Shown: positions 23,709 to 47,513, numbered from the whole stretch's first letter. The stretch: 47,513 nt of DNA, filler included, from Jimgerdemannia flammicorona (GCA_003990765.1; 2 parts of 2 records of this genome joined end to end with filler, not necessarily neighbours in it); one strand, 5' to 3'. Program-made: numbers and translations. Notes: a model not told the origin generated them from the sequence alone.

Positions 23709-23808
23709 NNNNNNNNNNNNNNNNNNNNNNNNNNNNNNNNNNNNNNNNNNNNTTAATTAATTAANNNNNNNNNNNNNNNNNNNNNNNNNNNNNNNNNNNN
23801 NNNNNNNN
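23709..23808. other. Assembly gap / artificial contig linker
   Basis: N44 + TTAATTAATTAA (stops in all six frames) + N44 = 100 bp. Confidence 0.97.
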
Positions 23809-24914: not shown

Positions 24915-26093
24915 ATGAAGCCCTCGAACAACCCCCCTCTCTCACGACCACTGATTCTCTTGACCGCCATGCTAACCCTTCTGGCCGAAGCGAGCCTCGC
25001 ATACCCAACCACAGGAAACAGGTAAAAATCAACCTCACGCTCCCCATTACGCTACGCCACCTCTCTCTCCCAATAGTTTCCTCACCTGTCTCCCCTCCCC
25101 TCCCCTATTCCCCCGCGTCCCCCCAGCTCGCACGCCTCGGCAAAACGCGCTCCAGACATCTACTCGTCTGACGGCACAGTGCTGATCTTTGTGGTCGTGA
25201 CAATCGCAATCATCTTGCTGAGTTGCTGCGCCTGCGCGTGGTACCAGAACAGCCGGTACATCCGCGAACAGAACGAACAGAACCGCGACGCCCCACCAGT
25301 TCGGCTCGAACCCATCGTCCCCCAAGACCCGACTATAGACGATGATTCATCTGTGAATCCATCTTCTTTTGCACCGTCGCCGTCGCCGCCGTATAATGCG
25401 ATACCGGCCGCAGGAGAGAGCGTAGTGGCCGTTGGGCCGAATGGAGCGCCCGTCAGTGGGGCTGGTGGAACACCGGCCGAGGGAGAGAGCGTGGTGGCCG
25501 TTGGGCCGAATGGAGCGCCCGTCAGTGGGGCTGGTGGAACACCGGCCGAGGGAGAGCGCGTGGTGGCCGTTGGGCCGAATGGAGCGCCCGTCAGTGGGGC
25601 TGGTGGAACACCGGCCGAGGGAGAGCGCGTGGTGGCCGTTGGGCCGAATGAAGCGCCCGTCAGTGGGGCTGATGGAACACCGGCCGAGGGAGAGCGCGTG
25701 GTGGCCGTTGGGCCGAATGAAGCGCCCGTCAGTGGGGCTGGTGGAACGCCGGCCGAGGGAGAGCGCGTGGTGGCCGTTGAGCCGAATGAAGCGCCCGTCA
25801 GTGGGGCTGGTGGAACGCCGGCCGAGGGAGAGCGCGTGGTGGCCGTTGGGCCGAATGAAGCGCCCGTTGGTGGGGTTGGTGGAACGCCCGAGGGAGAGCA
25901 CGTGGTGGCCGTTGGGCCGAATGAAGCGCCCGTCAGTGGGGCTGGTGGAACGCCGGCCGTTGGGTCTGATGGAACGCTGGCCGTTGGGTCTGATGGAACG
26001 CCGGCCGTTGGGTTGAGTGGAACGTCGGCCGGTGGGTCTGATGAAACGCCGGCCGTTGGACTGGGTGGAACGTCGGGCGTTGGGACCGGATAG
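24915..26093 (+). CDS. Two-exon gene for a signal-peptide, single-pass membrane protein with a cytoplasmic 23-aa tandem repeat
   Basis: Exon 1 24915-25021 (MKPSNNPPLSRPLILLTAMLTLLAEASLAYP), intron GT 25022..AG 25126, exon 2 25127-26093 in frame. KR dibasic site, TM segment VLIFVVVTIAIILLSCCACAW, then repeats of AVGPNGAPVSGAGGTPAEGERVV. Confidence 0.8.
25413..26080 (+). repeat. Coding minisatellite: ~7.5 x 69 bp followed by ~5 x 24 bp
   Basis: Unit gagagcgcgtggtggccgttgggccgaatgaagcgcccgtcagtggggctggtggaacaccggccgagg; then gccgttgggtctgatggaacgccg. Confidence 0.95.
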
Positions 26094-27470
26094 AGTCGAG
26101 GGGAGGTGGATGGACAGTGTGTGGTTGCGGTGTTTGTCGGTGGACACGGATTATTGTTATTCTTTAGACTGTTGTAATTATTTTGTTGCGGTAAAATTCC
26201 TATGAAATGCTTTGTTGCGGTAAATTCCTATGAAATGTTTTTATGATATGTACAGTCCACATTCGCCTTACATTTCCGTATTTATTTTTTTTCCCTTAAA
26301 CAAAAAGGTATCATTCTGCATGTCCCATATTTTGCTCTCTCCCTTCCTTTATTTTATTTTATTTTATGATGGCATTTGGCTACTCGGATTTGACCAATGC
26401 CGCAAAAAAAAAAAAAAAACAAAAAACAAAAAACAAATCGAAGAATATACTGCCATTATGTCGACGCCGTTCATTAAAATGCACCTGCCGCGATGTTATA
26501 GGGCACACGACGAAATCGACATCCCTGGAACAGGCAATCGCATGAAAACGCAATATATTATGCTACCGTTAGTTGTCATACCGCTACGGGATTGAACCAT
26601 GAAAAAGTATGCGCTAAAGACTTTTGCGATATATAAAATGGTTTGTATAAAATATGCATGTAACCATTTGCATGGCGGTCTGGGTATAATTGGTATAATT
26701 GTGGGGTATGTGATTGGACCGGTGTTTCGGCGATCACTGTCTCGAGCATCACGACAACTTTAAGGACATTGGGCTCGTGCCGTAGTACGTCCAGATCGAC
26801 GGGCACATATACCTCAGGTATGGGACTGGTGAATATGAACATGGATCAATTGTAATTATTTTTTTATCTTCGCTCGTAGTTACCCACGATTTCCGAAATC
26901 CCGTCCAAAAATATGGAGTATATGCTTTGCCAATTATAAAACATTTTGAATTATGGATTGGACGGGTGCTTTGGCGGACAGAACCAATGACCGTGTTTTT
27001 GGCTTCACGACAACTTTCCTTAAGGACATTGGGCTCGTGCTGTAGTATATACGTCCAGATCGACGGGCAGATAACCCTCCAGGAGGAAAAAAAAAGGGGG
27101 GGACTCGCAATTTGATACTGGTGAATATGGACATGGATAAATTGTTAATCTTCCCTTGTAGCAACCCACGATTCCCGAAATCCCCGTTCGTATGTGCACC
27201 AATAGACGCACATCTACATTTACTGTCTGCCAACATTTCGCCATTTTTGTACTGTGATGAACTCATTTATGTGATAAATATACTTTATTTATATTCTTCG
27301 AATTGTCGCTATGGCGACATCGATGATTCCTCCATTGGTAGCCACAAAGTCCCCATCAAACAAAAGTGATTCAAGCATGGCTCTAATTCCCCTGACATCT
27401 GTTTTGATTTCTTCGACGTCCGTCTTGATGTTCTCAAAGTACGTCTTGATCTGTGTTCGCCTTGCTGCTC

Positions 27471-28595
27471 TCATCGCCGTCGCCCGTCTTGGTGACATGC
27501 ATCGGCGATTTGCTTCCTGATATCTTCAATCTGTTTCTCGAGGTCTTCGATGGCATCGATTGCGCGAATAAGCAACGTGCTGGCATTGTCTGATAACAGT
27601 GATTTGGATACCGATATCATTATCATATACTATGCATAATTAAATAAAATATATTAAAATGTAACTACTCACCTTCCTCGACCATTATAAACAAGCGCCC
27701 GGCATCGTATAATTCGCCTAATAATTGAAGTGCCTTACGATTTGTTTGGACAAATCGTCGTACTTTTTCGGAAGCATTTTTAGGAAATCCTAAAAAGATA
27801 TACAAGGTTAACGAAAGTAAAAAATTGTGTTCACGAAGTGTATGAAATACTTTAAAGGACTTGGCATACATACCGACAAAAACGAAAGCAAAAACATCGC
27901 ATGCCTCCAATTCGGAATCGTTTCTTGCTTCCCTCTGCGCAACAAGCAGATAACAGAGATCTCGCTCAAGCTGAAGAAGCTTTTGGTCACACAATTTCGG
28001 GTCTTTTGATACTTCGCCTACGATATATCGTTGAGGTTCCGTATCCGAGAAAGGCGATTGACTCCGTTCCGACCTACAAAAATATTTAGAAAATTAAAAA
28101 GTGTACAAAATAAACTTTGATATTACAGACATAATGAAAGACGTACCCATCATGCATTATCTCCATCTTCGGATTTAGGTTCTTCATTCTCGAGTCTTGT
28201 TTAAAAGCGATTTCATCGGTAGCATTGACAATTGCTACAATATCTACCTCGAAATTATTGAAACCAAGTGCGTCTCGTTCGGCATCTGGGGTATCTTGCC
28301 AGAGTTGTACGAAGGACTTTGCCTCTTTTAAGGATGCTTGTGATCCCTTCTTTTTGAGAGTTAAGTGTGTCGAGTTTAGGGGCGGTGCTTGAGGTTGATC
28401 TATGTCGTTGTCTCGCTTTTTGATATAATTTTTTGTCTCCTCGATGGTGGTTACGTTGTCAAAAGTGCGTCCATCGACTTTCAGACCTTGAACGCAAAAA
28501 CCGATGGATGACAACGAGAGTTCTTCTTTAAGAGTGCGCCGACAAATATCCTCGTATAAATCCGCGGCTTGTTTTATAAGAGCAAGAGCCGTCAT
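27471..28595 (-). CDS. Paralogue A: 4-exon gene (~294 aa) with a putative PD-(D/E)xK-like nuclease domain and a short coiled coil; frameshifted heptad remnant downstream to ~27290
   Basis: Exons 28595-28147, 28073-27874, 27789-27673, 27589-27471 splice in frame with GT-AG; motifs LYEDICR, FEVDIVA, YIVGEVS, KLLQLER. Confidence 0.7.
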
Positions 28596-29379
28596 GATTA
28601 GCACAATGGAATCGTAAGCTCAAGCGCGACCTTATATATGATTTACAAATTTATTTAGCATAGTATATAAACTATTAATAGCACCTCTTGACTCACGATG
28701 ACGATATTTCGTTTATATTAATAGTTGTGAGAATTTGAATTTGAGAATCTCAATCTGAGAACTTATGTCGGAACCTTATATGTCCTTGACGGAACCATAT
28801 TTGTAATTCTTACGCTATGAGTAGGAGCCGCAGCAGAGAGCGGAGGTTAATCCCCCCCCACCCATGACTTGGCAAGGTATGCTAGCAATATACTCTAGTT
28901 TTTTACATGAAAGCTGTAACTGGGTTTGTAGTTCTAGACCCTTTGTCGGTCCAGTAACTATAGGTAATTACAAGCAGTCTTGACATTCCTAATTATGTCC
29001 GTGGGTGCAACTCTATTATTTTTGACCAAGTAACTTTGAGTATATCGCCAAAAGGATTCATCCACTTTTGTTTTCGTGACTCAATGACAACAGATACTAT
29101 GACTACTATGTGAAAATCTCTATAAAAAAAAAAAAAACTCTATTCTTTTATAGAATGTTACCTGGGAGACCAAGATATTATTTTCACGTAATTATATTTT
29201 TCAACGCGTGTATATATATAACTCCACAAAACAGCCATGATAAGAAAATAAAGTTAAAAAAAAAAAGGGGCTCAATCCAATCGTTCCGGCCTTGATGTAG
29301 CAAAGCACTTCACATGACCACCCCCAGATTGCGAACCCTGCATACGAACCGGTCAAATAGGTGTTTGTAAGACATAGGG

Positions 29380-30816
29380 TCCAAAAGCGTATTTGGGCAC
29401 CAAATTCATGGGTCACGCTAAATATTTTGAGTACGTCCACCCTATAGTATTTCGATATCGCTGGCGTCTCGTAGCGCAGGGAAGCGAGTTGTGAACTGAC
29501 GACACATTTGGATACCCCGACAATATCCGTTCACGATGTAGTCCTGGGGCGGGGGCACAAGGGAGGTAAAACTATTGTACCCTGTGCCATATCTTCCGTT
29601 TCGCCAGCACATACGCTCGCCCCAGATCAAATGATTCGCCCTGCGGCTCAGACGGCGATGGTGTTGGTCTGGCCGTTAGTGGTGTCAGACGCCCGACGGA
29701 TGTTGTGCGCTATGCCTTCCTCCACCGTGGCGACTATCGCCGTTCGAATTCGTGACGAGCACCTTTCGTATGCTTATTTGGGTGATGATTGCCGCGGTTG
29801 GCGCGTGCTGGAGGTAATCTCTTGGCGGGTAACTATTTGAAAGATGATTAAAAGATCGATGCAAAATTACGCCCTCATACATCCCCTCAAACAAATTAAA
29901 GAGACAGCGACGACGCAGCATGCAAACATTATCTTTTCATTCTTTTTTGAGGTGGGTGAGTATGATGAGATTTATGCACAACAACCATGCACGACAGCAT
30001 TCAAACCGACTGGATTCAAAACGCTTACCCGCCAAGCACGAGATCCACCTCCCCCACCATCTCCTACGCAAAGATCAGGTCGTTCTGTAGCCGCATGTGG
30101 GTCAGCCCTACCACAATGTCTATAGAGTGTGGGCTCAGACTGGTCGCGTAGCGTTCGTGAGATCGCGCGCCGTATCAAATGTGGAGTGGTACTTGAGGTT
30201 GGGCGAGAAACTGGGGATCGTCACGATTCATTCTGAAGAGGAGATGTGGGTCACTTTATTCGTGATCTAAATTATTCACATGACAAAATCCCCCTTCGCC
30301 TTTACCCTGAACTTACTTCTTGACAAGCCCAATGATGCTGACTTGATGCTACTCTTCTTCCCCTGAAACACGAGGAACTGACCCAGCCGCTTCGGTGGTT
30401 CGCCCGTGACCTCGTCCAGGAAATTGAACAGCAGCCAGGGGAAATTGGTTTCGATGATCAGCTTCTGCAAGTCGGGCACGCCAAAGTCGACGTCAAGGTT
30501 CCCCGCCAGGGAGGTGGCTATATGGAGCTGGCTCATGATCGAGATCCTATGGAGTGAAGCATAGAATGTTGGTGGGCCTGTGCCAGCCGAATCAACGACA
30601 ATTGTGTCAAAAGAAGGGAAGAGATACGTGCATGTGGTGCCCCAACGTAATGGAGCTCTCAATGTTCGAGCTGAACACATCGCCACTGAACAGCACCCAG
30701 TGATTCTCGTCTGGTCCTTCCTCGTCGAGACGGGGTTTATGGTGGTGGCGCAGCGAGCGGCTCCTTTTTCTGTTAAAGTGCCCGAGGTTGAATTTTTGAG
30801 GCACCATGACTGTCAT
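29380..30816 (-). pseudogene. 5'-nucleotidase (calcineurin-like metallophosphoesterase) remnant
   Basis: VLFSGDVFSSNIESSITLGHHM (~30630-30700), GNLDVDFGVPDLQKLIIETNFPWLLFN (canonical GNHD changed to GNLD), IVTIPSFSPNLKY (~30190-30230). Frameshifted, and the 3' extent is uncertain. Confidence 0.8.
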
Positions 30817-31072
30817 AACAATGGTCGTTCGTTCGTGGGAAGAGCATCGTCTGGAGTGCCTTTTGTTTTTTCGCGACGCGTTATATCACGTGACTGAACT
30901 GATGCCAAGTCCAATTGTTGTTTTTGTTCCTCGGAATATATTCTGTTCTATGATTCTACGATGTTGATGAGAAATTTCCTACTCACGAGGTACTGATCAC
31001 TGAGAATTCACTTTTTTTTTTTTGAAAATTGCAAATGTAGCGTTGAAGATTGCCTTTTGCTGTAAATCCTAT

Positions 31073-31106
<34 letters not shown>

Positions 31107-32124
31107 AAATTAAATTAAATTAAATAAAATAAATATACATAAAAACATTACCAAAGTTAAAGTCGGTCAATTGATATAGAATATTTAGTGCAACATTAAA
31201 GTAAAAATCGTGGCCACAGTTGTGTCGAGGACACTTGACGTGGCGATAGTTTTGCCCCTTATGCTTGAACCGGAGGAGAGGAAGAATACAATAGTTGTAT
31301 CACAACGTAATTACATTGGAGAAATTACTCAATTATTGCATAATTCACGACGATTAAGACACGTCCGACGGTAGAGCAACCGTGGCGGTGAGAGATCAAA
31401 ACGCCTGTCGGCAACCTATACGTCCGAGCTTGCGCCCGTGACTGTCGCGATTCGAATTTGATTAATGCAATATATGCGGTATTACGGGACGCACGGCGAA
31501 ATCGACATCCTTGTTCGCGGAACTTGCGACAGAATCGTATGAAAAGCATATATATACGCGACGGCCCATATTATGCTACACCATTATTTGTCATATAAAC
31601 CACGAAACCGACCTCAGCCACTAAGGGACTGAAGCATGAAAAGTATGCGTCAAACAGTTTAACATCTTGTAAACATTTTGTATGAATATGTATGCAACCA
31701 TTTGTGTATAATCATGGTGCTTCGGCACAATCAAATGACTGTCTTCGCTTCACGACGACAACTTTCCTTAAGGACATCGGGTTCATGCTGTATCCGGATC
31801 GACAGACAGATGACCCTCCGGAAGGAAAAAAAGGGGGGAGGAGGAAGCAAGACGGTTTCACAATTTGATATGGGTGAATATGGATATGGATAAATTGTAA
31901 TTTATTTTTGTCTTCGCTCGTAGCTACCAAAATTCCCGTTCGCATGTACGCCAATAGACGCACATCTACGTTTACTATCCTCGCCATTTTTGTACTGAAC
32001 GCGAATGGTGAACTCATTCATGTGATAGATATACTTTATTTATATTCTTCGAATTGTCGCTGTGGTGACTTCTCCATTGATAACCCATTCCATTGGTAGT
32101 TATAAATTCCCTCAACAAAAGGAT

Positions 32125-34492
32125 TCAAGCATGGTTTGATGCTCTCGACGTTGGTCTTGATATTATCAACGTCCGTTTTGGTTTTTTCCACCACGGCAAT
32201 TTTGGTTTCTTCGTCCGTTTTGCTGCTTTCAATTTTTTACCGTCCGACTTGACGTTCTCGACGTCCGTCCTGATCTCATCGTCCGTCTTGACGTTTTCAA
32301 TGTCCGTCTTGATCTCTTCGTCTGTCTTCCGCGTCACTCTTGATTTTGGTTTCTTCGTCCGTTTTGCTACTTTCAACTTTTTACCGTCTGACTTGACGTT
32401 CTCGACGTCCGTCTTGATCTCATCGTCCGTCTTGACGTTTTCAATGTCCGTCTTAATCCCATCGTTTGTCTTCCGCGTCACTCTTGATTTTGATTTCTTT
32501 GGCTGAATTAATGCCCTCAACATCTCAATGTTCGTCTTGACGTTCTCAACATCCGTCTTGATCTCATCGCCTGTCTTGACGTTCTCAATGTCTGTCTTGA
32601 CGTTTTCAATGTCCGTCTTGATCTCACCGTCTGTCTTCCGCGTCACTTTCGATTTTGATTTTTTCGGCTGAATTAATGCTCTCAACATCTGAATGTTCGT
32701 CTTGATGTTCTCAACATCCGTCTTGATCTCATCGCCCGTCTTGACGTTCTCGATGTCCGTCTTGATTTCATCGTCCGTCTTAAGGTTCTCAATATCCGTC
32801 TTGATCTCATCATCTGTCTTCCGCGTCACTTTTGATTTTGATTTTTTCGGCTGAATTAACGCTCTCAACACCTCAGTGTCCGTCTTGACGTTCTCAACAT
32901 CCGTCTTGATCTCATCGCCCGTCTTGACGTTCTCAATGTCCGTCTTGGTCTCATCGTCCGTCTTGACGTTTTCAATATCCGTCTTGATCTTATCGTCCGT
33001 CTTCCGCGTCACTTTTGATTTTGGTTTCTTTGGCTGAACTAATGCTCTCAATACCTCAATGTCCGCCTTAACGTTCTCAACATCCGTCTTGATCTCATTG
33101 CCCGTCTTGACGTTCTCAATGTCCGTCTTAATCTCATCGTCCGTTTTGCTGCTCTCAACGTCTGTATCGTTCGTATCGATGCTAGCGTCTGTATTGATGT
33201 TCTCAGTGTCCGTATTGATGTTCTCAACGTCCGTCTTGATATTCTCAGCGCCCTCCACCATTTTCGAATCGCCGATTTGATTCTTGATAACTGCAATTTC
33301 TTTTCCGAGTTTTTTGACAACATCGAATGCGTGAAGAAGGACCGTACAGGCATTTCCTGATAACAATGATTTGGATACAATTGTTAGTATTATATTATAA
33401 TTCATGTTTGAAAATATTATATTTAAAATATAACTACTCACTTTCTTCAACCATGATATAAAAACGCTTGGCGTTATATAATTCGTTTAACAATTGAGTT
33501 GCCTTACGATGTTGTTGCAAATATGACCGTATTTTGTCAGCCACGTCTTTAGGAAATGCTGAAATATATTCAAGATTAACGAAAGTAAAAAAGTAAAAAA
33601 ATTGCATAAAATACTTTAAGGACGTGGTATACATACCGACAAAAGCCAGGGCAAAAACATCGCATGCCTGCAATTCGGAATTGTTTCGTTTTTTTCTCTG
33701 CTCAACAAGCAGATAACAGAGAATTCGCTCAAGTTGAAGAAGCTTGTGGTCACACAAATTCTCGTTCACTGATACTTCACCCACAATATATTGTGATATA
33801 GAAGGACGAGGTTCCATATCCGAGGAATTCGATTGACTCGGTTCCGAACTATAAAGGATGTTAAGGAAATTAAATAGTGTATACTATAAACTTTACTAAA
33901 TAAATATATAATAATAAAAAACATACCTTTTGGATTTTTTGGCCTTTTTCGAATTTATGGAAATCATTCTCGACTTTTTTCCGAAAGCGATTTGTTCGGC
34001 AACATCGACGTATGCCAAAATATCTGCCTCCAACTTATCGAAAGAAAGCCCACCGGTGTTCTTTGACTCGGTATCTTTCCAGAGCTGTGCGAAGGACTTT
34101 TCTACCTCATTTAAAGGTTGCTGTGCGAGATCGTCAATCGGTTGTCGTTCTTTGATATACTGTATTGTTTCGTCGATGATGGTTTTGTCGTTAAAATTGC
34201 GTGCTTCGAAGTTCTCATCTTGAGCGCAAGAATGGAAAGATGACGATGAGAGTTCTTCTTGAAGAGTGTGCCGGCACACGATTTCGTATAAATCTCCCGC
34301 TTGTTTGGAATAGGAAGCTTGTCGGGCAGCTTGTTGAGCAGCTTGTTGGGCAGCTTGTTCAACTTGTTTGGAAAGAATAGACAATTGTGCAGCTTGTTGT
34401 GAGAGAGCAGATAATTGTGCAGCTTGTAGCGTAGCTTTTTGTGCAGCTTGTTTTGCAGCTTTTTGCGCAGCTTTTGGTGAAAGAGTCGCCAT
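32125..34492 (-). CDS. Paralogue B: intact 4-exon gene (~708 aa): N-terminal QAAQ repeats, putative PD-(D/E)xK-like nuclease, long KTD(V/I)EN(V/I) heptad array, basic tail
   Basis: Exons 34492-33927, 33848-33637, 33558-33442, 33356-32125 total 2127 nt and are open throughout; canonical splice sites at the same positions as in A, C and D. Confidence 0.85.
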
Positions 34493-36145
34493 TATGATTA
34501 GCGTAATAGACAAGGAAATCGTGAGCTCAAGTGCGACCTTATATATCGATTTGTATATTCAATTATTGTTGCATATAAACTAATAATAGGATCTAATGAT
34601 AATAATTAATATAATAGAATTTCCCTAACAGAATAAGGGATTACAAGTCTATCTCGCGACTTGGCGACGTTTATGTAACATCATGTGGTCCGAATCGTGA
34701 TTACGTGAATTACTCAATCTGAGAGTTCATGCCGGAAATTTGAAAAGTCATTGACGGCACCCACATTTAATTCGAAATTGGAATACTTTACATTATGAGC
34801 AGGAGTTGCAAGTAGCACCTAAAGAGAGCGAAAGTTAATCACACCCTCACGCGACTTTGCAAGGTGTGCTAGCAATATACTCTCATGTAAGCTGAAACTG
34901 GGTTTGTATTTACCATGGTTGGTCAGTCCTACCTGGAATCTCAATTTATTGTGACTTAAAGCAAATGTTTCACAGAAATTGATTGATAATAAAGGGGTGG
35001 GGAAATTGTTGGATCTATGTGAACGTGTTTACTAAAATTCACTATGAAAAGCGTCTGGAGACGACCAGGGGAGCCTGAAAAATGACCTGTCGTAAGGGGA
35101 TTCCTGGGATATCTGATCCCTGCTTGAATGCACCCGTTCTGCTACTTCCAGATTTCAAGACTGCTCCTTTATTTGCAAGGCTATACAACCCTTATTTATA
35201 TATACATAATTTCAATACTAAAAATATCATACTAGATGGAGATCCCCCGTAAGCCCGTATATACTCCCTTCGGAGAACCGTTTCAGAGCCTCCCTCGCGC
35301 GGTTCAAGGCACGTGCCCCTCCCTTACAGATCACTGTAGCGGTTCCACAGAAATTGATCGATGATCAAGGGGACGGAAATTGTTTGATCTATGTGGACGT
35401 GTTTGGTAAGGAATTCGCTATGAAATGCGTCTGGGAGAGCCTGAAAAGCAACCTGTCATAAGGGGATTCCTGGGATATCTAATTTTGCACGATGTATTGC
35501 CAAAAGCATTCATCCATTTCCGTTTTTGTGGCTCAATAATGATAGACACTATGACAACAATTTAACTATGTAACAGTCTCCATTATTGAATAACTTTTCG
35601 GGAATTTTTTTTTTTTTGATACCAAGTTAAGATATTATTTTCCAGCCTGATGACAAACTCGTGATCATTAATAAGCATATTCGCACAGTTTTGAATTGCT
35701 AATTAAATCAAAGTACTGGTATCGCGAAGGACGACACGCTTCAAATCACGAGTTGGCGGCACATGCCGCTTGGTTCACGTTACTCCGCCAAGATACCCTC
35801 TAAACAACCATGCCTCGGAGCGCACAGGATTTCAAGTATGAGTTTCTGAAGTGACAGATACGGTTCCGCTTCGGTTTTCAATACTTTTGGCATGCACATG
35901 ATATTGTGACGCACTTGGAGATCTTTCGTCGGCATACATCATTTGCACATACTATCCAGACCTGGAATGAATAGCTCCTATTATGTTATTGTACGTAATC
36001 GCGATTCGGACCTCATGAATAACCCCTATTCTGTTAGTAAAATTATATTATATCAACGATTGTCATCAGATTCTATAGTAATTGAAATATGTAAATCAAT
36101 ATATAAGGTTGCACTTGAGCTCACGATTCTCTTGTAATCATAACG

Positions 36146-37805
36146 ATGACTCCGACGACTCTTTCTGCACAATTATCTGTTCTTTCAGAACAAGCTGCCC
36201 GACAAGCTGCCCGACAAGCTTTTTATTCCAAACAAGCGGCAGATTTATACGAAATTATTTGCCGGCACACTCTTCAAGAAGAAATCTCGTCGTCATCCTT
36301 CCATTCTTGCGCTCAAGATGAGAACTTCGAAGCACGCATATTTAATGACAAAACCATCATCGACGAGACAATACAGTATATCAAAGAGCGACACCCGGTA
36401 GACGACCTCGCACAGCAACCTTTAAAAGAGGCAGAAAAGTCCTTCGCACAGCTCTGGCAAGATACTGAATCAAAGGACACCGATGGTCTTTCTTTCGATA
36501 AGTTGGAGGTAGATATTCTGGCGTACGTCGATGTTGCCGAACAACTCGCTTTCGGAAGAGAGTCGAAAATGATTCCCATAAAGTCGAAAAAGGCGAAAAA
36601 ATACAATAGGTATATTTTTCATTGTTATAATTTATATGTTTAATAAAGTTTATGTTAATTTCCTTGACATCTTTTATAGTTCGGGAGCGAGTCAATCGAT
36701 TTCCTCGGATATGGAACCTCGTCCTTCTACATCACAATATATCGTGGGCGAAGTATCATGGATGCAAATTTGAGTGACCACAAGCTTCTTCAGCTTGAGA
36801 GAATGCTCTGTTATCTGCTTGTTGAGCAAAGAAAACGACGAAGCAATTCCGAATTGCAGGCATGCGATGTTTTTGCCCTGGTTGTTGTCGGTATGTACCG
36901 CATTCTTTAAAGTATTTTATACATTTCCTACACGTTTTTTTATTTATTTTATTTTATTTTATTTTATTACATTCGTTAACCTTGATATACTTTCAGCATT
37001 TCCTAAACATGTCAGCAGAAAAATACAGTCATATTTGCAAAAACATCGTAAGGCAATTAGATTATTAAATGAATTATTTGATGCCAACCGTTTTTATATA
37101 ATGGTTGAAAAAAGTGAGTAGTTATATTTAAATATAATCTATTTAAACATGAATTATTATATAATACTAACAATGATATCCTATTTACTGTTATCAGGAG
37201 ATGCCTGTATGATGCTTCTTAACGCATTCGATGATGTCAAAAAACTCAAAAAAGAAATTGCAGTTGCCAAGAATAAAATCGGCGATTCAAAGATGGTGGA
37301 GGACGCTGAGAACTTTAAGATGGGCGTTGAGAGCATCTATACCGACGGTGAGCTCAAGGCGGACATTAAGAACGTCATGACCGACGATGAAGTCAAGACG
37401 GACGTTGAGATGTTGGAAACATTAAGTCAGCCGAAGAAATCAAAATCAAAAGTGACATGGACGACGGACGATGAGATCGAGACGGACTTTGAGAACGTCA
37501 AGACGGACGATGGGATTAAGACGGATGTTGAGAACGCCAAGACGGACGATGAGATCAAGACGGACGTTGACATGTTGAAAGCATCAAGTCAGCCGAAGAA
37601 ATCAAAATCAAAAGTGACGCGAAAGACGGACGATGAGATCAAGACGTGGGGGATCGGTGGAACGCATAGCTGGTGTCCAAATACGCTTTTGGTCCATCTT
37701 ACAAACGCCTATTTGACCGGTTCGTATGCAGGTGCAGGGTTCACAATCCGAGGGTACGGTCATGTGAAGTGCTTTGCTGCATCAAGGCTGGAACGATTGG
37801 ATTGA
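36146..37805 (+). pseudogene. Paralogue C: frameshift right after GEVS, and 3' end fused to unrelated sequence
   Basis: gaagtatcatggatgcaaatttga (~36750-36773) lacks 1 nt relative to B/D, giving a stop; the heptad exon switches at ~37646 into the block also found at 29270-29400 and 45120-45270. Confidence 0.75.
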
Positions 37806-38751
37806 GCCTACCATTACTAGTTGCGTCGTTTCGAGGTGTACGGCTTTGACTTTTTTTTTTACTTTATTTGGCTTCCCATGGCTGTCGTGGTCCTCGTTAC
37901 TGGCGTAAGTGGGTCAACCCATGTGCATAATACCCTTTATTACATTACCGGAAGGATTCGCTTGAAGAGAGGGATCTCAAGTTGTGATCTCCGGAAGTAT
38001 GTAGCGGGACCGCGTCTCTCACTTCAGAAACTCAAGCTTGAATCCTGTGCGATCCGAGGCATGGTTGCTTAGAGGGAGTAACGTGAAACAAGCGGCATGT
38101 GCCGCCAACTCGTGATTTGAAGCTCACGATACCAACACTTTGATTTAATTAGCACAGATATGCCATTCAAACTGTGAATATGCTTATTAATGATCAGGAG
38201 TTTGTCATCAGGCTGAAAAATAATATGTTGGTCTCGGAGTAAACATGTTATCAATCGTTTTTTTTCCTCAATAATGGAGACTGTTACATTGTTAAATTGT
38301 TGGCCACAAAAGCGGAAATGGATGAATACTTTTGGCGATTCATCGTACAAAATTAATAAGGAGCACAGACATACCACCCCCCTTTCCCAAAGGCCGATTT
38401 TGTGGTAGTACTCGGATATTAATTACAAGGGATCCATCCTCGAACTTTATTTGATAAATCTCAGTACATGTACATAATGCCCCGAATGACTCCAATATGA
38501 ATTAAATCTTCATTCGAATTCGACCTTCGGGCCGGACCGTCGGCGGTAATCCAACATTTGCTTACTATTATGTTATTAAATTTATTTGCACGTAATCACA
38601 TGAATAACCCCTATTCTGTTAGTAGATATTCTAGTATATCAACGATTGTCATTATATCCTATAGTTTATATGTCACAATAATTGAATATGTAAATCAATA
38701 TAAAAGGTCGCACTTGAGCTCACGATTTCCTTGTCTATTGCGCTAATCATA

Positions 38752-40242
38752 ATGGCGTCTCTTTCACCAAAAGCTGCGCAAAAAGCTGCAAAACAAGCTG
38801 CACAAAAAGCTGCAGAACAAGCTGCACAATTATCTGCTCTTTCACAACAAGCCGCACAATTATCTATTATTTCCCAGCAAGTTGAACAAGCTGCCCAACA
38901 TGCTGCCAAACAAGCTGACCGACAAGCTGCTTATTCCAAAGAAGCGGGAAAATTATATGAAGTTATTTGCCGGCACACTCTTCAAGAAGAAATCTCGTCG
39001 TCATCCTTCCATTCTTGCGCTCAAGATAAGAACTTCGAAGCACGCAAATTTAAAGACGAAGCCATAATCGACGAGACACAACAGTATATGAAAGAGCGAC
39101 AACCGATTGACGACGCCGAAAAGTCCTTCGCACAGCTCTGGAAAGCTACGGGAGAGACGGGCGATGGAATTTCTTTCGATAAGTTGGAGGCAGATATTTT
39201 GGCAAACGTCAATGTTGCCGAACAAGTCGCTTTTGGAAAATTAAATTCGAGAATGACGTTTTTCATTATTATATATATATATTAGTAAAGTATATATTAT
39301 ACACTATTTAATTTCCTTGATATCTTTTATAGCTCAGAATCGAGTCAATTGAATTCCTCGGATATGGAACCTCGTCCTTCTACATCACAATATATTGTAG
39401 GCGAAGTATCAGTGAATGCGGATTTATGTGACCACAAGCTTCTTCAGCTTGAACGAATGCTCTGTTATCTGCTTATTGAGCAAAGAAGGAAACGAAACAA
39501 TTCCGAATTGAAGGCATGCGATGTTTTTGCCCTGGCTTTTGTCGGTATGTATACCACGTCCTTTAAAGCATTTTATACATTTTCTACTTGTAGATGCATA
39601 TATATATATGTGCATTTGTTAACTTTGAATATCTTTCAGCGTTTCCTAAAAATATTGTCGACCAAATACGGTCATATTTGCAAAAACATCGTAAGGCAAT
39701 CCAATTACTAAACGAATTATTTGATGCTGAGCGTTTTTATATAATGGTTGAAGAAAGTGAGTAGTTATATTTTAAATATAATCTATTTAAATATGAATTA
39801 TTATATAATACTAACAATGGTATCCAAATTGCTGTTGTTAGGAAAAGCCCATACTGTGCTTCTTCGCGCATTCGATGTTATCAAAAAGCTCGAAAAAGAA
39901 ATTGCAATTATCAAGAATCAAAGCAGCGATTCGAAGATGGTGGAGGGCGCTGAGAACATCAAGAAGGACTTTGAGAACATCAATACAGACGTTGAAGGCA
40001 TCGAGAACATCGATACGGATAATACGGACGTTGAGAGCAACAAGACGGACGATGAGATCAAGGCAGACATTGAGAACATCAAAACGGACGATGAGATCGA
40101 GACGGACAATGAGAACGTCAAGACGGAAGTTGAGAAGTTGAAACCAGCAAAACGGACGAAGAAACAAAACCGGCCGTGGTGGAAAAAATCGAAACGGACG
40201 TTGATAATCAGACCAACGTCGAGAGCATCAAGCCACGCTTGA
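38752..40242 (+). CDS. Paralogue D: 4-exon gene with a shorter heptad array; first donor site altered by a deletion
   Basis: Highly similar to B. A deletion near 39255 removes the GTAT donor, leaving an in-phase weak GTTTTT donor. Exons 2-4 are intact and the gene ends SRASSHA*. Confidence 0.65.
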
Positions 40243-40603
40243 ATCACTTTTGTTGAGGGGAATTTATGACTACCAATGGAGTTATCAGTGGAGAGGTCAC
40301 CACAGCGACAATTCGAAGAATATAAATAAAGTATATCTATCACATAAATGAGTTCAACATTCGCATTCAGTACAAAAATGGCGAAATATTGTTGGCGGAG
40401 GGACAAGGACAGTAAACGTAGATGTACGTCTATTAGCGACGACATAATTAAATTACGATTTATCCATGTTTCCCCTTTATTTTTTCCATGGAGGGTTATC
40501 TGCCTGTTGATCCGGATACAACATGAAACCGATGTCCTTAAGGAACGTTGTCGTCGTGAAGCGAATAGACAGTCATTTTATTGTGCCGAAGCACCATGAT
40601 TAT

Positions 40604-43363
40604 TGTTGTGACGAACAGAAGAAGCGATTTATTCATAAATACAAATCGTGCGCTTTTAGGCGCTGTAATGATGATGTAAAACGAATTGGCGTAAAGTCAC
40701 GTGGATACATATCGACTTGTAATCCCAACACTCCTGCTCAAGGAGATATGTACGCCAAAACAAAAAAAAGAATATCATTGCAATCTGCAATAAAATACAA
40801 ACTAGAGTAAAAAAAGCAATGCAACATATGCAAAAAACTAGAACTGCATATAACCCAAATTACAACTAGAAATCCTACATCTAAGGAATTTTTCGCAGGT
40901 CGAAAAGTGTTCTGAAATACCTGTAATACCCAAAGAAATGCAAAATGCATGTGGATAACGCAAATAAAGGGGTAATGTGAATGTCAAATATATATGCAGT
41001 ACAAGAGACTTTTAAGTGCCTGAAAAGTGTCCCATGATAAACCGCTAGACTTTGCCAAAATGCTGGTGTAGAGGGTGCATTATCCTGTAATGTTCAAAAA
41101 AGTCCCATTTGCTCATCACAATATTCCTCATCGTAGTATTCAGACTCGCCATCAGACTCATTGTAGTCTTCAAACTTGTCATAACATTGGTCGTTGAGGT
41201 CCCAATCAGCATTACAGGAGCTGGATAACTGTATACCACTCCCGCTTAATCTATTATCATTTCCATTGCCACACAGAGTGACTGTATAGTTCGCCATTCC
41301 TTTAATATACCTATTCTCATTCTCAAGAAGTGTTGTTCCTGATGAGAGAGCCATATTTGTCCATAGCCTTTTCCACTCTTTGCTGTTGGAGAGATTCATG
41401 GCTTCATACATGCTGTTTGTGGTACTGTGGTCGATGGTTGTTGTTTTGGTAGTTGCTTTTTTGACTCTTTTGGCAGTTGCCTTTTTGGCAGTTGAATATC
41501 ACCATTATCTAGGTTTGTCACAGATTGTTTAACTGGCATTGACAGTGGTTATTGCACTGCTTGTACTGCTTGTACTGGATGTTATTACTCTTTTGGCAGT
41601 TGCTCTTTTGGAGAGAATTTCTCATCGCTGGAAGTTTTGCCATCCTGAATTTCAATTATTCTAGGCTCGAGATGCACTGGCAGTTGCCAATACATTTCTG
41701 TTAACTGTTACATTTACACTGTTTTCTCAGGTTGTACTGGATGTTGTTGTGCTGATTGTTGTGCTGTTTGCACTGAATGTTGTTGTCCTGAAGATGTTGT
41801 CATTGAAGCCGTTGACAGTTGTTTTTGCCATTTGCGCTAGATGTTGCACTGGTTGTTGCCCCATTTAATCAGCATTGGCTGTATTGTTAGCATAATTGCC
41901 AGTTGTTGCTGGATACATATAAGTCGTTGATATCAGGTATAATGTCGCTTGACGTAGTTGTCGAGTTAGCCCAGATATGGATGTCATTCGGGGTTGACAT
42001 AGTTGTCGAATTCGAGTGCTGGTGGATAGCATACTGTGCTTTTGGAGATGTCAATGTAATTGTCATATTCACATGCTGGCATATAGCGTATTTGCGGACA
42101 GGTATGCCATTAATTGTATATAGGTTGCCTTTTTTGATGCTGTCATTAGTCGCCTTTGGCCGTTGTATATTGTCGCACCTTTTGAATGTAAATGTATTTG
42201 CTTGTTTCCACGTGACATAATCTTTCCTATTGAGAATAAATTCTTCTTTAAATCAGGAGCATAGAGGACATCATATAGTGTGCTGGTCATCAGTTGCCTA
42301 ACGTTGCTATACAATTCCATGTTGACGTTGCCTTGTCCTTTGACATAAATGATGTTGTTATTTCCCATTTCTATAGGGATCGATTCCTTGAACTCCTTGT
42401 ATGTGCTGAACCATTCGCAGTGCAGCATCATATGCTGTATTGTGCCGAAGTCTATTAGCCAGATATCGTCGTTATCATCAGCTGAGTTGGAGCTTTCATT
42501 GTTGCTGATGTCACCACGTTTCGGGTGAAGCAGGTGTGGCTGACCTGTAGATGTCAGGTTGGTGGTAGAATTTGCACTGGTAGATCTCGTAGAACTGACT
42601 GTAGACCTGATGCTGGCAGGACTTTTCGTCAGTTCAAAAGTATATCCCGAATTAGGTCCTAAATCAGCATATGCATAGGTTGCTTGCGTGTAGAATAGAC
42701 CATCCTTGTTGCCAGTTTCGGCGGTATAGTTGGCTTGGCCACTCTGGCTCTTGCCATTCCAATTATTTTCACCGCGTTGTTCATGTAGTCGGTGATAATC
42801 TTCACTGTGGTTCTTTTTACTATAGCATTCCCTTTCACAGTGTCCATGTTTCCTGTAGGACTTGCAGTTACCTTTGAACTTTGCATTTCCGCGTTGAGCT
42901 TGGGTTTGGGTTCGTCCGCGTTGGCCTCGTTTTTGCTGGTCTCGCATGTACTGGCCTCGTTGGTCTTTTCCATGACCTCGTGAGCTGTAAAAGGCTTTTT
43001 CATTGTCATCATAATTGCCTTGACCACTGAGCGGGCATAATCGCCTGCCACCTGGGAGGGCTTCTTTGTTGTTGCCATCTGGATTGTCCTCTTGACCACA
43101 CTTACAGCAGCGGGGACTTGCGACTGTCATTGCCATTATGCGTACATGCTTAGATCATAGTGTATGCTTAGAGGATCGTTGGATCTTGTCTAGCAGAATA
43201 TTTTCTTAATGACTAGTGCTTCTCTTAGCAACTATCGGGGCTCATAACCTATGTTGTGACGAACAGAAGAAGCAATTTAGGCGCTGTAAATGATGACATA
43301 CAAATGATGTAAAACGAATTGGCGTAAAGTCACGTGGATACATATCGACTTGTAATCCCAACA
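40604..43363 (-). mobile_element. Internally deleted Ty1/copia LTR retrotransposon (2.76 kb)
   Basis: LTRs 40604-40730 and 43252-43363 (TG...CA); TSD ATTAT (40599-40603 and 43364-43368), with the empty site visible in the paralogous block at ~31700; PBS GGTTATGAGCCC; PPT TGAGCAGGAG; gag knuckle CKSYRKHGHCEREC, protease WLIDFGTIQHM, LYDVLYAPDLKKNLFSIGK. No integrase core or RT is recognisable. Confidence 0.95.
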
Positions 43364-44687
43364 ATTATACACAAATCGCTTTGACAAATGGTTACATACA
43401 TATTTACAAAACGTTTCCAAGATGTTAAACTGTTTGGCGCATACTTTCGTGCTTCAATCCCGTAGTGGCTGAGGTTGTTTCGTGGTTTAACGTCGGGTGT
43501 ATATATGTTGCTTTTTTATACGGTTGCCTGTCGCAAATTCCGCGAACATGACAGGATGTCAATTTCCCGTAATACCACAATGTATTTGACCGTGTTGGGA
43601 ACGGCGTCAACATAAATTACAGAATATAATATTTTTTGGGGACATTAGTCAAATCCGAATAGCCAATGCACAGCGAGCGCCATTATGTTCCTGCGCGTCG
43701 CAAGCTGCCACAGTCCTACCACCCCTTTGATCGGGGAGCCAGAGAGATTGGACGTATATGTTGCCGATAAGCAATGTTGCTTATTTGCAGTTCTCCGGTC
43801 CTCCGGTTCAGCAACCTCTAAGATATAAGGGGCACTGCGGCCACAACTTTGCTTTATTCGTTGGAAAGCTGATTGCCTTAAAGTGAGTGTAAGAATTACA
43901 CGGCATCAATGGGCGTGTTTTGCCCCTTGTTCCGGTTTCAATTTTCAGTTTTCTTTTTTCTTTTTTCCGACAAAAGCTGAACAATCTCAACCATATAACA
44001 ATATTGTCCGACGAATCTCCTCTACTACGGTGAATACCCATGGATTCAAGTAAAAATTAATAATATGTATTGGTCTTTTCTACGTGTTTGCTTGATGCTT
44101 TTTATTTGATTCATAGAGAGGCGAATGGCAGCTTGGACGCCTTGATGCTTATAATTGAGACCAATGTGAGGCTATTACTCGAACTCATATTGCTTAAATT
44201 TTACCTAGCTTATCCTAAATGCTTTGCGCATAATTCTCATACGTAGGACACGTGCCGCGTTCCATCGAAACAACAATTGGTAATATATGCGGATTTCTAC
44301 CATGAAGCAGCGGTCTGACTCGGGAAGCAGGAAGAAGCGAAAAGGTGAGAATCGGCGCCAAAATGGGTATATACGATATGGAAAGCATATTTATACACAA
44401 AGTTAATGAAAACAAAGAGCGGTAAAGGTTGGATGATCAGCAGGTAATGGAGATAAACAACATGCCTTGACAGGCTTCATTCTGCACGAAACCTAGCGAG
44501 ATTTCCTTATCGAAAACACACCCCATGGTCACTTTGTATACCATGCCCCTCTACTACCGACATTCCTTCTGTTGAGAATGCACCCCATGGCAACTTTATA
44601 TACCCTGCCGCAACAACGAACTGCAGAAATTCCCCCCTCTGCCAAGGTTCCATTTACCGCAGTTCCAGCTGAGAATGCACATCAAGG

Positions 44688-45140
44688 ACCATTGGGCTTG
44701 TCAAGAAGTATATACGTTTAAGGGTAAAGGCTAAAGGGGATTTTGTCATGTGAATAATGAAGAGATCACGAATAACGTGACCTACATCACCTCTTCAGAG
44801 AATGAATCGTGACGATCCCCAGTTTCCTGCCCAACCTCAGGTACCACTCCACGTTTGATACAGCGCGCGATCTCTCACGAACACTACGCGACTCGTAATC
44901 TTATTTCGAGAAAAAAAAAAAAAAAAAAGGCTGCTAATCAGAGAGTGATTGACGTTACAAGTAACATTTACTGTGCAAGGGATATTGTTGGGGTATCCAA
45001 ATGTGTGGTCAATTCACAAATCACTTCACTACACTGCGAGACGCCAGCGATGTCGGAATACTATAGGGTGTATGCACTCAATTGCCTCCGAAATATTTAA
45101 CATGACCTGTGAATTTAGTGCCCAAATACGCTTTTGGTCT
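44688..45140 (+). pseudogene. Second, more deleted fragment of the 5'-nucleotidase-containing block
   Basis: 44688-44895 is the reverse complement of ~30143-30335; 44980-45140 is the reverse complement of ~29380-29530. Confidence 0.7.
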
Positions 45141-45325
45141 CCGGTTCATATGCAGGTATGGCCATGTGAAGTGCTTTGCTGCACCAAGGCTGGAACGATT
45201 GGATCGAGCCTACCATTACTATTTACGTCGTGTCGAGGTGTACCGCTTTGACTCTTTTTTTTTACTTTATATGGATTACCATGGCTTTTTGTGGAGGTTT
45301 ATACCCGCATTGAAAATGTAATTAC

Positions 45326-45495
45326 GTGGTCTTAAATCACGATGTTTTTTTGGATTGTGTTTTTTTGGGTGACATAGTTGAATGATTTTTCAGTCGCGCG
45401 CCTGGCCATGTCCCTGGGCATGTGACTTTAAACATTCAGCTATATACGTCATCCAAAAAACACAATCCAAAAAACACCGTGATGCTATAGACCAC
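45326..45495. mobile_element. 170-bp foldback MITE-like hairpin
   Basis: Arms gtggtc...atcacgatgtttttttggattgtgttttttgggtgac and gtcatccaaaaaacacaatccaaaaaacaccgtgat...gaccac; TA dinucleotides lie close to both ends. Confidence 0.75.
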
Positions 45496-45935
45496 CCATA
45501 TCCGTCATAATACCCTTTATTACATTACTGGAAGGATCCCCTACTTGTAATAGACCGAGATCGTGACTGGCTCCCCGCGACTTGGCAAGGTATGCTAACA
45601 ATATACTCTATGTAAGCTGAAACTGGGTTTGTTTCTGCCATCGTTGGTCAGTCCTACCTGGAATCTCAATTCACTGTGGCTTAGAGTAAGCAAATGTTGG
45701 ATTATGCCGACGGTTCGGGGTATTAAGTATATGTACTAAGATTTATCAAATAAAGCTTGAGGATGGATTCCTTGTAATATCCGAGTACTACCACAAAATT
45801 GGCCTTTGGGAAAAGGGGGGCGTATGTCCGTGCTCCAGGGTCATGTATAACTCTATTATTTTCGACTAATTTTGTACGATGTATAGCCAGAATTATTCAT
45901 CCATTTCCATTTTCGTGGCCAGACAATTTAACTAT

Positions 45936-47513
45936 TGTAACGTGCCGGCTCAATGGAGGCAAATTACAAGGTTGGGGGTTGATGTAGTTTGGCTTGAGCC
46001 CCCAGTTACTTTGTTAAAAGCAACAAAATGTTCTTGGTGTTTAGCGGTATAATAGTCAAAGCTGGATATCTGTGAGCGATTTCCTTATTGGGACTGTTCT
46101 CTGGGTGTAGCGGCGATTTGTGTGGGTGGGTTTCCTTCTGGGAATGGCACAATTTCTGTGTAGCGCGACGATCTCCTTGTGCGTGACGGTCTGGCAATTT
46201 AGCGGTTCTCCTTATGCGATTTCTGCGTGACGATCTCTGTGTAGCACGACGATCTCGGTAGCGCAACGATCTCTGTGTAGCGCGACGATCTTTGTGTAGC
46301 GCGGTGGGTTCCTTATACAGGTCAACTGGGAACGCGGCGATCCGGTGGATAACTCGATTTGGGTTCACTGGGAATTGTATGGCATGGGTTCTTCTACACC
46401 GGGCTTACTGGGAATTATCTCGGGTGGCAGATAACTCGATAACTCAGGCTCACTGGGAATGACGAATAACTTGGATGGCGCGGATTCTTCTAAATCGGCG
46501 GCTTCAACTGGGAATACGGCGGATTAACTCAAAAGGCGGCAGATGACGCGGATTCTCCTGGATCGGCGGGCTTCTGGAAAATAACTTGGGTGGTGCGGAT
46601 TCTTCCTGAATCGGCGGCTTTAACTGGGAATGCGGATAACTCAAGAACGGCGGTTTCAACTGGGAAAGCGGATGGCGGCTTTTTTGGGAAAGGGTCTCTT
46701 GGCAAAGTTACGTCAAAGACTGGCTTCGTTTGCGCGACGAATCACTGCGAAGTTGCATCAGAAACTGGCTTAAGCAAGGCGGCTTTCTTTTTGGCGGCGG
46801 AAAAGGCGGAAATCTTCAGGCTTATCTGGCAAGCGAACCAAGGGCTTCTCTTCAAAGGCGGCGAAGTTCTTCTTGAACTTAGGCGGCAAGTCTTCAGGCT
46901 TATCTGGCAAGCGAACCAATCAATCCAAAGGCGGCGAAGTTCTTCCTTGAACTTGGCAGCGAAATCAGCTTTGTATCGGAAAGTGGACTGGAGTGGGAAT
47001 AAGGGGACCAATTGCTCAATCTTTAGAGGCTTCTTTGGTTTGCACTTCAATTCGGACTGAGGTTTTATTCACTCTCACCACTGGGGTAATTTATACAAGT
47101 TGGTTGCTATCTGGTTACTATGTGGCTAACTATAGATCTGCTACTTATGGCAGGTGTACAGAGTCTGTACAGTGTACAGAGTCTGTACAGGTAAACAGAC
47201 CCTTTCTGGTATGTCTGGCTATTTATATAGGTTCCGCAGCAAGGGTTGCTGGTTGCTAAGCTAAGTGTTCATGTCATTTTGTTCACGTCATCTGGTTAAG
47301 ATATGATTCGGGTGGTACGTCTTGGCTTGTCACATTAGCCCCCACTGAAGAGTAGTCTGTCTCAGGCTATTCTTCAGTCATCATCCTAATAAGCATAGGC
47401 TGCTTCTGCATCTATACCTGTTCCATCATCTTCATTGTCTGTACTGGGGTTACTCCATTCTAGAGGCTCTTCTTCTTCTTCAGGGAATAGAATTTCGACA
47501 GAGTTGATGATGC
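45936..47513 (-). mobile_element. Probable Ty3/Gypsy 3' end: ~1.4-kb LTR (45936-47334) with PPT and upstream internal sequence running off the window
   Basis: The minus strand reads cagtgggggctaa|TGTGAC...GTTACA; TATA-like TATATAAATAG ~105 bp into the LTR; homology to the neighbouring duplicated block stops at 45935. No second LTR is in the window. Confidence 0.6.

Follow-up and report, generated by a model that had tools for sequence, protein, structure and literature searches.

Nucleases of the restriction-endonuclease (REase) or PD-(D/E)xK fold have been described in several systems that bear on the locus analyzed here. In the PD-EXX-K variant represented by Pa4535 (1y0k) the lysine has migrated to the following helix, and such shifts tend to preserve catalysis (PMC3424549). 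CifB shows an E...D...EXK...Q pattern (PMC11342252), and REase-fold domains are also present in the Spok proteins of Podospora (PMC6660238) and in Crinkler (CR) proteins such as RiCRN1 of Rhizophagus irregularis (PMC6131194; PMC5289972). In this study a window of 47,513 nucleotides (the whole stretch of DNA that was analyzed) from Jimgerdemannia flammicorona (Endogonales, Mucoromycotina), a member of a putatively ectomycorrhizal genus (PMC12574304), was found to carry a cluster of four spliced paralogues, the core of which very probably adopts the REase fold, with a catalytic lysine that may have been relocated. The window consists of two contigs joined via an N-TTAATTAATTAA-N spacer at 23709-23808, and the cluster lies in the right part of 23,705 bases. 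The left contig is AT-rich and CpG-depleted and is unrelated to the right contig, so that nothing left of the spacer counts as context for the cluster. Self-alignment with BLASTN bore out the four copies, here A to D, on the strands that had been given in an earlier, sequence-only reading of this DNA:

28595-28147, 28073-27874, 27789-27673 and 27589-27471 (whole 27471..28595), minus strand: copy A, four exons, 294 amino acids (aa)
34492-33927, 33848-33637, 33558-33442 and 33356-32125 (whole 32125..34492), minus strand: copy B, four exons, 708 aa
36146..37646, plus strand: copy C, a pseudogene with an early stop from a 1-nt loss after GEVS and with exon 4 cut at 37646
38752..40242, plus strand: copy D, four exons, lacking near 39257 about 12 codons and the normal donor of intron 1

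The evidence for the fold comes from an AlphaFold2 model of residues 1-282 of the database relative P0003, built from an alignment of 12 rows, which reached a predicted local distance difference test score (pLDDT) of 73 and a predicted template modelling score (pTM) of 0.69. In a VIA structural search over 48,161 chains PaqCI came first (Z 7.1, root mean square deviation 3.3, 116 aligned residues), followed among the best 50 rows by Hachiman, Can2, NucS, CdiA-CT, XisH, Cap4, McrBC, MspJI and others. Judging by their titles, we take 39 of these 50 rows to be PD-(D/E)xK nucleases and three to be RPB5 subunits with that fold; the remaining eight are presumably other folds, five of them acetyl-CoA carboxylase. 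A re-ranking of Foldseek's own list for the same P0003 model agrees with PD-(D/E)xK. The ESM Atlas gave no feature match, and the matches of its low-confidence P0003 model, several of which were REase-fold families, had template modelling scores of at most 0.29, too weak to count. Model, fold search and the invariant acidic residues moderately support the REase fold that had been proposed from the sequence, and we regard this fold as very probable for the core.

Twelve columns are invariant in all seven sequences aligned (A-D, P0003, P0004 and P0005), at 21-30% identity to the remote pair P0004/P0005, and these columns include E-x-D, Y-xxx-E and K-xx-QLER. The strand aspartate and the strand glutamate are invariant in 7/7 sequences and the helix-1 glutamate in the six sequences covering that part. 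In the P0003 model they take the positions expected for the superfamily, with a glutamate in helix 1 (Glu9 in helix 2-21), an aspartate at the start of strand 2 (Asp109 in strand 107-114) and a glutamate on strand 3 (Glu193 in strand 188-195). The sequence-only reading had already raised the worry that the catalytic lysine is replaced by serine. The serine was confirmed, and the worry is partly answered by a lysine, invariant in 8/8 sequences, that lies 11 residues after the strand glutamate and three before an invariant glutamine and falls in the next helix of the model (Lys204 and Gln207 in helix 198-223). From model and alignment, the strand lysine may have been relocated to helix 2, as in PD-EXX-K, and nuclease activity is plausible, its presence being judged slightly more probable than its loss. 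The motifs LYE..CR, E(A/V)DI, YIVGEVS and KLLQLER, which had been listed before, are indeed present in all four copies. As a DNA pattern, Y..E(V/I)(S/T)x8K..QLER matches A, B and D with 0 matches in 100 shuffles, and it misses C because of the frameshift just after GEVS:

27963..28027, minus strand: putative active-site block of copy A (Y..E-V-S..K..QLER), DNA pattern match
33726..33790, minus strand: putative active-site block of copy B, DNA pattern match
39391..39455, plus strand: putative active-site block of copy D, DNA pattern match

Database searches suggested a narrow distribution of the family, with a total of five related proteins over all searches. A phmmer search of P0001, a query containing a retained intron, against 1.84 billion representatives returned four proteins (P0001, P0003, P0004 and P0005). 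Word-index protein searches, which are insensitive here, one of them having missed three known members, returned only three J. flammicorona hypothetical proteins and P0004. BC938DRAFT_470932 (P0001) corresponds to copy A, BC936DRAFT_139377 is the D orthologue and BC936DRAFT_140577 is a further paralogue, all of them annotated as hypothetical only. P0004 and P0005 resemble each other and P0003 in pairwise alignments (expect value (E) about 1e-12 per single comparison). No family for the core was found at a convincing score in Pfam, NCBIfam, PADLOC and PHROGs, the tails giving generic coiled-coil noise only, and a PDB sequence search with the family profile gave two irrelevant weak matches. In narrow tests for bacterial or archaeal relatives none of 283 pattern matches was confirmed, and two strict-motif matches scored below 4 bits with the family profile; equally narrow tests with P0005 as the only query gave no match in phages and in plasmids only S-layer noise at E of at least 0.1. 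Moreover, neither a description of the family nor its locus-tag prefixes were found in the open-access literature searched.

The nucleotide identity is 82% over 1604 columns between B and D, 80% over 1475 columns between B and C and 70% over 1188 columns between A and B, and no fifth copy turned up when 1411 six-frame segments of the window were searched with a profile. The three shared intron positions of the sequence-only reading stood; the introns have phases 2,1,1 (C being shifted by its 1-nt loss), are AT-rich and about 70-107 nt long, and in D the normal intron-1 donor is lacking. The intron 1 of D begins GTTTTT and not GT(A)xGT or GTATAT, and D is open (411 aa) only if this weak donor is used. 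Its orthologue in a second assembly, P0002 (BC936DRAFT_139377), is identical in 167/168 residues of exon 1 and 70/70 of exon 2 and appears to retain the exon-1 end that D has lost, so that the damage to D is specific to the strain, within the limits of what a predicted protein can tell. That one copy is a pseudogene had been recognized correctly for C, which is frameshifted beside GEVS by the loss at about 36759; the extent of decay had been understated, because C is also truncated, D has lost its donor and the tail of A is out of frame. In copy A the nuclease-like core is intact and the protein stops at 294 aa with a shortened tail. The N-terminal part of A is identical to P0001, whose model reads through intron 2 and differs at its end. 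B is the sole cleanly intact copy of the four and keeps a 1232-nt open exon 4 despite many repeat expansions; a database protein equal to it was not among the matches of the word-index search. In the databases, three models of the family retain an intron or skip an exon, and the intact B is absent among them, which makes the annotation of the family unreliable. Birth-and-death turnover is thus even stronger than first claimed, with three of four copies damaged and D differing between strains. Such rapid gain and loss is common among defence and selfish genes.

The repeats that flank the core vary from copy to copy:

34316..34479, minus strand: N-terminal 12-nt (K/Q)AAQ repeats of B, from repeat analysis
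32125..33250, minus strand: C-terminal repeat tail of B, with acidic units of 21+18 nt (7+6 aa) in higher-order repeats of 183 and 144 nt
27289..27470, minus strand: out-of-frame remnant of the A heptads and hydrophobic C-terminal tail, resembling the in-frame end of P0003

Counting of the N-terminal AAQ/AAR repeats gave none in A, eight in B, seven in D and a short run in C, in agreement with what had been read from the sequence; P0003 also lacks them. For the C-terminus, a series of 21-nt heptads had been described that ranges from a remnant in A to a long tail in B. The repeats are present, but the B tail is a mixture of 14 seven-mers, 13 six-mers and five 22-residue basic units, including QPKKSKSKVTR-type segments and a basic end, and the heptads of A are out of frame. 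The naming of these tails as variable coiled coils proved wrong for B, C and D, since the hydrophobic power at a period of 3.5 is 0.07 in B, 0.03 in C and 0.22 in D compared to 2.02 in P0003, the only tail with a continuous heptad pattern. In C (37400-37646) heptad-like words emerge when the basic segment is translated in another frame, and the ends of B and D are out of frame with their own last heptads. The basic tail segments appear, on comparison of the frames, to be frameshifted heptads, an apparent recoding of the repeat at 32125-33250 and 37400-37646 by compensating frameshifts. Matches to K[KR]x[KR] number 11 in B, and there are none in A and P0003. In P0004 the nuclease-like core is followed by a helical linker, a C-terminal transmembrane-like hydrophobic helix and then basic residues, which suggests a membrane-anchored form. 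A simple hydropathy check revealed no signal-peptide-like hydrophobic stretch in 6/6 N-termini.

The self-alignments show that the genes were duplicated together with their promoter, their upstream blocks and their 3' flank, all in a common order, in units of 3-4 kb:

28588..30334, minus strand: upstream region of A, with a TATA-like box and with blocks that recur at B, at D and at 44.7-45.9 kb (self-alignment)
34488..36145, no strand assigned: upstream region between the divergent copies B and C, containing two TATA-like promoter blocks as well as the shared upstream blocks (self-alignment)
37647..38756, plus strand: upstream unit of D, whose 5' edge abuts and truncates C (self-alignment)
44690..45941, no strand assigned: copy of the shared upstream blocks that contains no gene and is inverted in part (self-alignment and profile search)
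40604..43363, minus strand: decayed long terminal repeat (LTR) retroelement in the 3' flank of D, with TG..CA LTRs at 40604-40730 and 43252-43363 and an ATTAT target duplication

This fits a spread of the copies by local segmental duplication of a host-like gene, and not by a transposon. The copy at 44690-45941, half of which is inverted around an imperfect palindrome at 45326-45495, is apparently the trace of a further duplication unit. Truncation of C by a transposon insertion was considered and rejected, the block in question being the upstream block of D. The retroelement at 40604-43363, which we take to be Copia-like, has a gag-protease open reading frame (ORF) with a Pol_BBD match (E 3.8e-22) and is internally decayed; the 3' flank of D resumes beyond it at 43364-43570. 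Methylation depletes CpG over time (PMC13297926). The observed-to-expected CpG ratio, which is also affected by codon content, is 1.35-1.49 in the family genes, against values of 0.57 for the retroelement and 0.13 for the left contig. As CpG is not depleted in the genes, they are not long-silenced transposon DNA. Common terminal repeats or target duplications at the unit edges were not seen in the self-alignments and in the 25 longest of 184 inverted pairs. The scan of 60 intergenic frames of at least 72 aa in the right contig gave one Pol match and one sub-threshold Ctr match, and no antidote or kinase gene was recognized among these frames, which short exons could escape. Rfam gave no match.

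Other features of the window were noted in passing. Upstream of A, a 178-aa frame on the minus strand (30279-30812) lies in a patch of 50% GC and may be an exon of another gene; it has no Pfam or PDB match and is unrelated to the nuclease-like family. The 3' flank of A contains a short tandem duplication (26746-26902 versus 27002-27184, 68%). A GC-rich ORF at 25077-26093 (338 aa from stop to stop, one hydrophobic segment) consists in part of 8.1 copies of a 69-nt Pro/Gly-rich repeat and has no Pfam family at the cut-off. In the left contig, two frames at 13079-14390, which had no Pfam match at E of at most 1, resemble what we take to be hAT transposase fragments.

Purifying constraint on the family is weak but present, as estimated from coding-sequence comparisons. 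Over the core, the pairwise ratio of nonsynonymous to synonymous substitution (dN/dS) ranges from 0.34 to 0.60 among B, C and D and from 0.70 to 0.86 in pairs with A. In codon models, which comprise six tests with uncorrected p values, dN/dS (omega) was 0.59 for B/C/D (p=0.012), 0.70 for the structured segments (p=0.048) and 0.62 for the part beginning with the YIVGEVS motif (p=0.049). Neither the loops (omega 1.36, p=0.30) nor the start of the tail (omega 1.57, p=0.25) gave evidence of positive selection. Between B and D, gaps are multiples of three in 5/5 cases in exons compared to 1/5 in introns, while the A-B alignment of exon 1 is too diverged to read gaps. In pairs with A, dN (0.31-0.33) exceeds the intron distance (0.25-0.26).

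We tentatively favor, at somewhat less than even probability, that these genes form a family of intracellular nucleases serving in conflict or defence and turning over by birth and death, its activity and role both being inferred. The nuclease would act as a conditional effector that cuts invading nucleic acid or, once triggered, that of the cell itself. The helix-1 glutamate, the strand aspartate and the strand glutamate would bind Mg2+, and the helix-2 lysine, with the glutamine three residues on, would replace the lysine of ExK. The tail might oligomerize and place the enzyme, as a putative coiled coil in P0003, as a putative coiled coil with membrane anchor in P0004 and in B, C and D as acidic repeats with basic segments resembling a nuclear localization signal (NLS). 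Without a kinase or a recognizable antidote, control would come from the tail, probably as a restraint, or from a narrow substrate. Costly copies would be lost and new copies would arise by duplication.

Several results weigh against this reading at the levels of fold, selection and role. Foldseek against PDB and viral libraries gave nothing at E of at most 0.001, and no structural match reached a Z of 8, scores below which can, according to the caution of the tool, reflect a common arrangement. The model is not confident for the first core strand (P0003 residues 90-103 with pLDDT below 50), and the P0004 model is poor (pLDDT 45), its structure search being filled by a long helix. The remote homologues P0004 and P0005 are borderline in phmmer (E 3e-4 and 4e-4). 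The canonical lysine of ExK is absent, with serine in A-D, P0002 and P0003 and threonine in P0004 and P0005. With all four copies omega is 0.81 and not significant (p=0.16), and after correction none of the six omega tests would clearly hold. As synonymous distances are larger than intron distances, low omega may be partly a bias. Columns in which P0004 and P0005 agree are not significantly more often invariant in A-D (21/35 compared to 46/100, p=0.11). Finally, toxicity, trigger and target are putative, as is the toxin, drive or non-self-recognition role suggested in the sequence-only reading.

The same data can be read as near-neutral decay of a dispensable, possibly inactive nuclease-fold gene that was locally duplicated in a repeat-rich region, the tail variation being slippage and frameshift noise. 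Three of four copies are damaged, frameshifts occur throughout the tails, omega does not differ from 1 once A is included, the A pairs have dN above the intron distance, and flanking non-coding blocks were duplicated along with the genes. However, the core indels between B and D are in frame, omega is 0.59 in B/C/D, exon 4 of B has stayed open for 1232 nt and the residues presumed to be catalytic do not vary even at 21-30% identity, and we consider decay alone to be unlikely, though to be reckoned with. A single-gene killer, acting in meiotic or post-germination drive or in heterokaryon incompatibility, would combine a nuclease that kills with a copy-specific self-association of the tail that protects carriers and renders diverged copies or alleles mutually incompatible. 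Nuclease fold, variable repeats and paralogue turnover would be Spok-like (PMC6660238), single-gene drivers detoxifying by self-interaction exist, as for tdk (PMC12930445), and D differs between strains. Given that kinase, Cys cluster and QxxxY are missing, that no antidote was recognizable in the 60 intergenic frames and that the cluster is tight and local, such a killer is distinctly unlikely. Its more specific form, a one-gene Mucoromycotina killer or self/non-self system that would do without a kinase and a separate antidote, is quite improbable; in it a PD-EXX-K nuclease would be restrained by its own repeat tail, and compensating frameshifts would rewrite the charge pattern of that tail, from acidic heptads to basic segments, to give copy- or allele-specific protection.

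Delivery to a host tree or to endobacteria as a Crinkler-type effector, in which the AAQ helix would take the place of the header, would be in line with the REase domains common in CR effectors, some with alpha-helical headers (PMC5289972), with the REase CRNs with NLS of mycorrhizal Rhizophagus (PMC6131194) and with the 11 K[KR]x[KR] matches in B. This is very improbable in view of 6/6 N-termini that have neither a signal-peptide-like stretch nor an LxLFLAK/LxLWK/HVLV motif, of A and P0003, which carry no N-terminal extension at all, and of the missing Walker A motif. CR-REases have also been linked to transposons (PMC5289972), and the units, which have flanks in common, occur in either orientation, as they might in a selfish mobile element using the REase as transposase; the lack of terminal repeats or target duplications at the unit edges within the pairs and self-alignments given above, three conserved introns, no CpG loss, no NTPase and only local copies make this highly improbable. 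Many PD-(D/E)xK proteins are housekeeping enzymes (PMC3424549), but a structure-specific nuclease of repair or RNA processing is most improbable, with only five database proteins over all searches, no Pfam family at its cut-off and copies lost freely.

The cluster represents a eukaryotic family, so far without annotation, of probable nuclease fold and with a putative active site of uncommon arrangement, and it comes from plant symbionts of a little-studied lineage. If the enzyme is active, the relocation of a lysine could be tested in a simple way on a eukaryotic REase, and the Endogonales would have a candidate gene for defence or killing; if inactive, the family would be an ordinary lineage-specific decaying cluster. 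Frameshift recoding of the repeat tail might moreover be a route to new protein sequence.

In comparison to the described systems, the links to Spok and Crinkler that the sequence-only reading had drawn are reduced to analogies, the defining features tested being absent. The family shares with CR-REase effectors the REase-fold domain, the occurrence in an early-diverging fungus that lives in symbiosis with plants, basic segments resembling an NLS and rapid family turnover (PMC6131194; PMC5289972). The ubiquitin-like Crinkler header (LxLFLAK/LxLWKV and HVLxxP) is found in 0/6 family N-termini, there is no signal peptide and no NTPase or kinase partner, and the nuclease is N-terminal; this distinction is drawn from published descriptions, and the family may yet belong to one of the CR-REase families 1-10. 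Likewise, Spok (PMC6660238) resembles the family in an intracellular nuclease-fold domain, a variable N-terminal repeat and paralogue duplication and loss, the variable repeat being represented by AAQ repeats in B, C and D and by none in A and P0003. The kinase-like resistance domain of Spok is absent, with no kinase motif in A, B, D and P0001-P0005 and no Pfam kinase match in the exons scanned or in P0001-P0005, and the C-x3-C-x13-C-x5-H-x7-H cluster, QxxxY and the catalytic strand lysine occur in 0/8 family sequences. Instead, the family has a long C-terminal repeat tail, and it belongs to a different phylum. CifB/CR-REase7 (PMC11342252) is alike in the E...D...E...Q pattern, whereas the family is single-domain, lacks ExK and has a cysteine (6/6), three residues after the helix-1 glutamate, where CifB has a histidine, the glutamate preceding that histidine being assigned as PMC11342252 is understood here. 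For Pa4535 the differences are that the family is a spliced eukaryotic gene with repeat tails, that no sequence match to such a PDB chain was obtained and that 1y0k is not among the best 50 structural rows. Pa4535 is alike in having a glutamate in helix 1, an aspartate at the start of a strand, a glutamate on the next strand and a lysine that is absent from ExK and lies in the helix that follows (PMC3424549).

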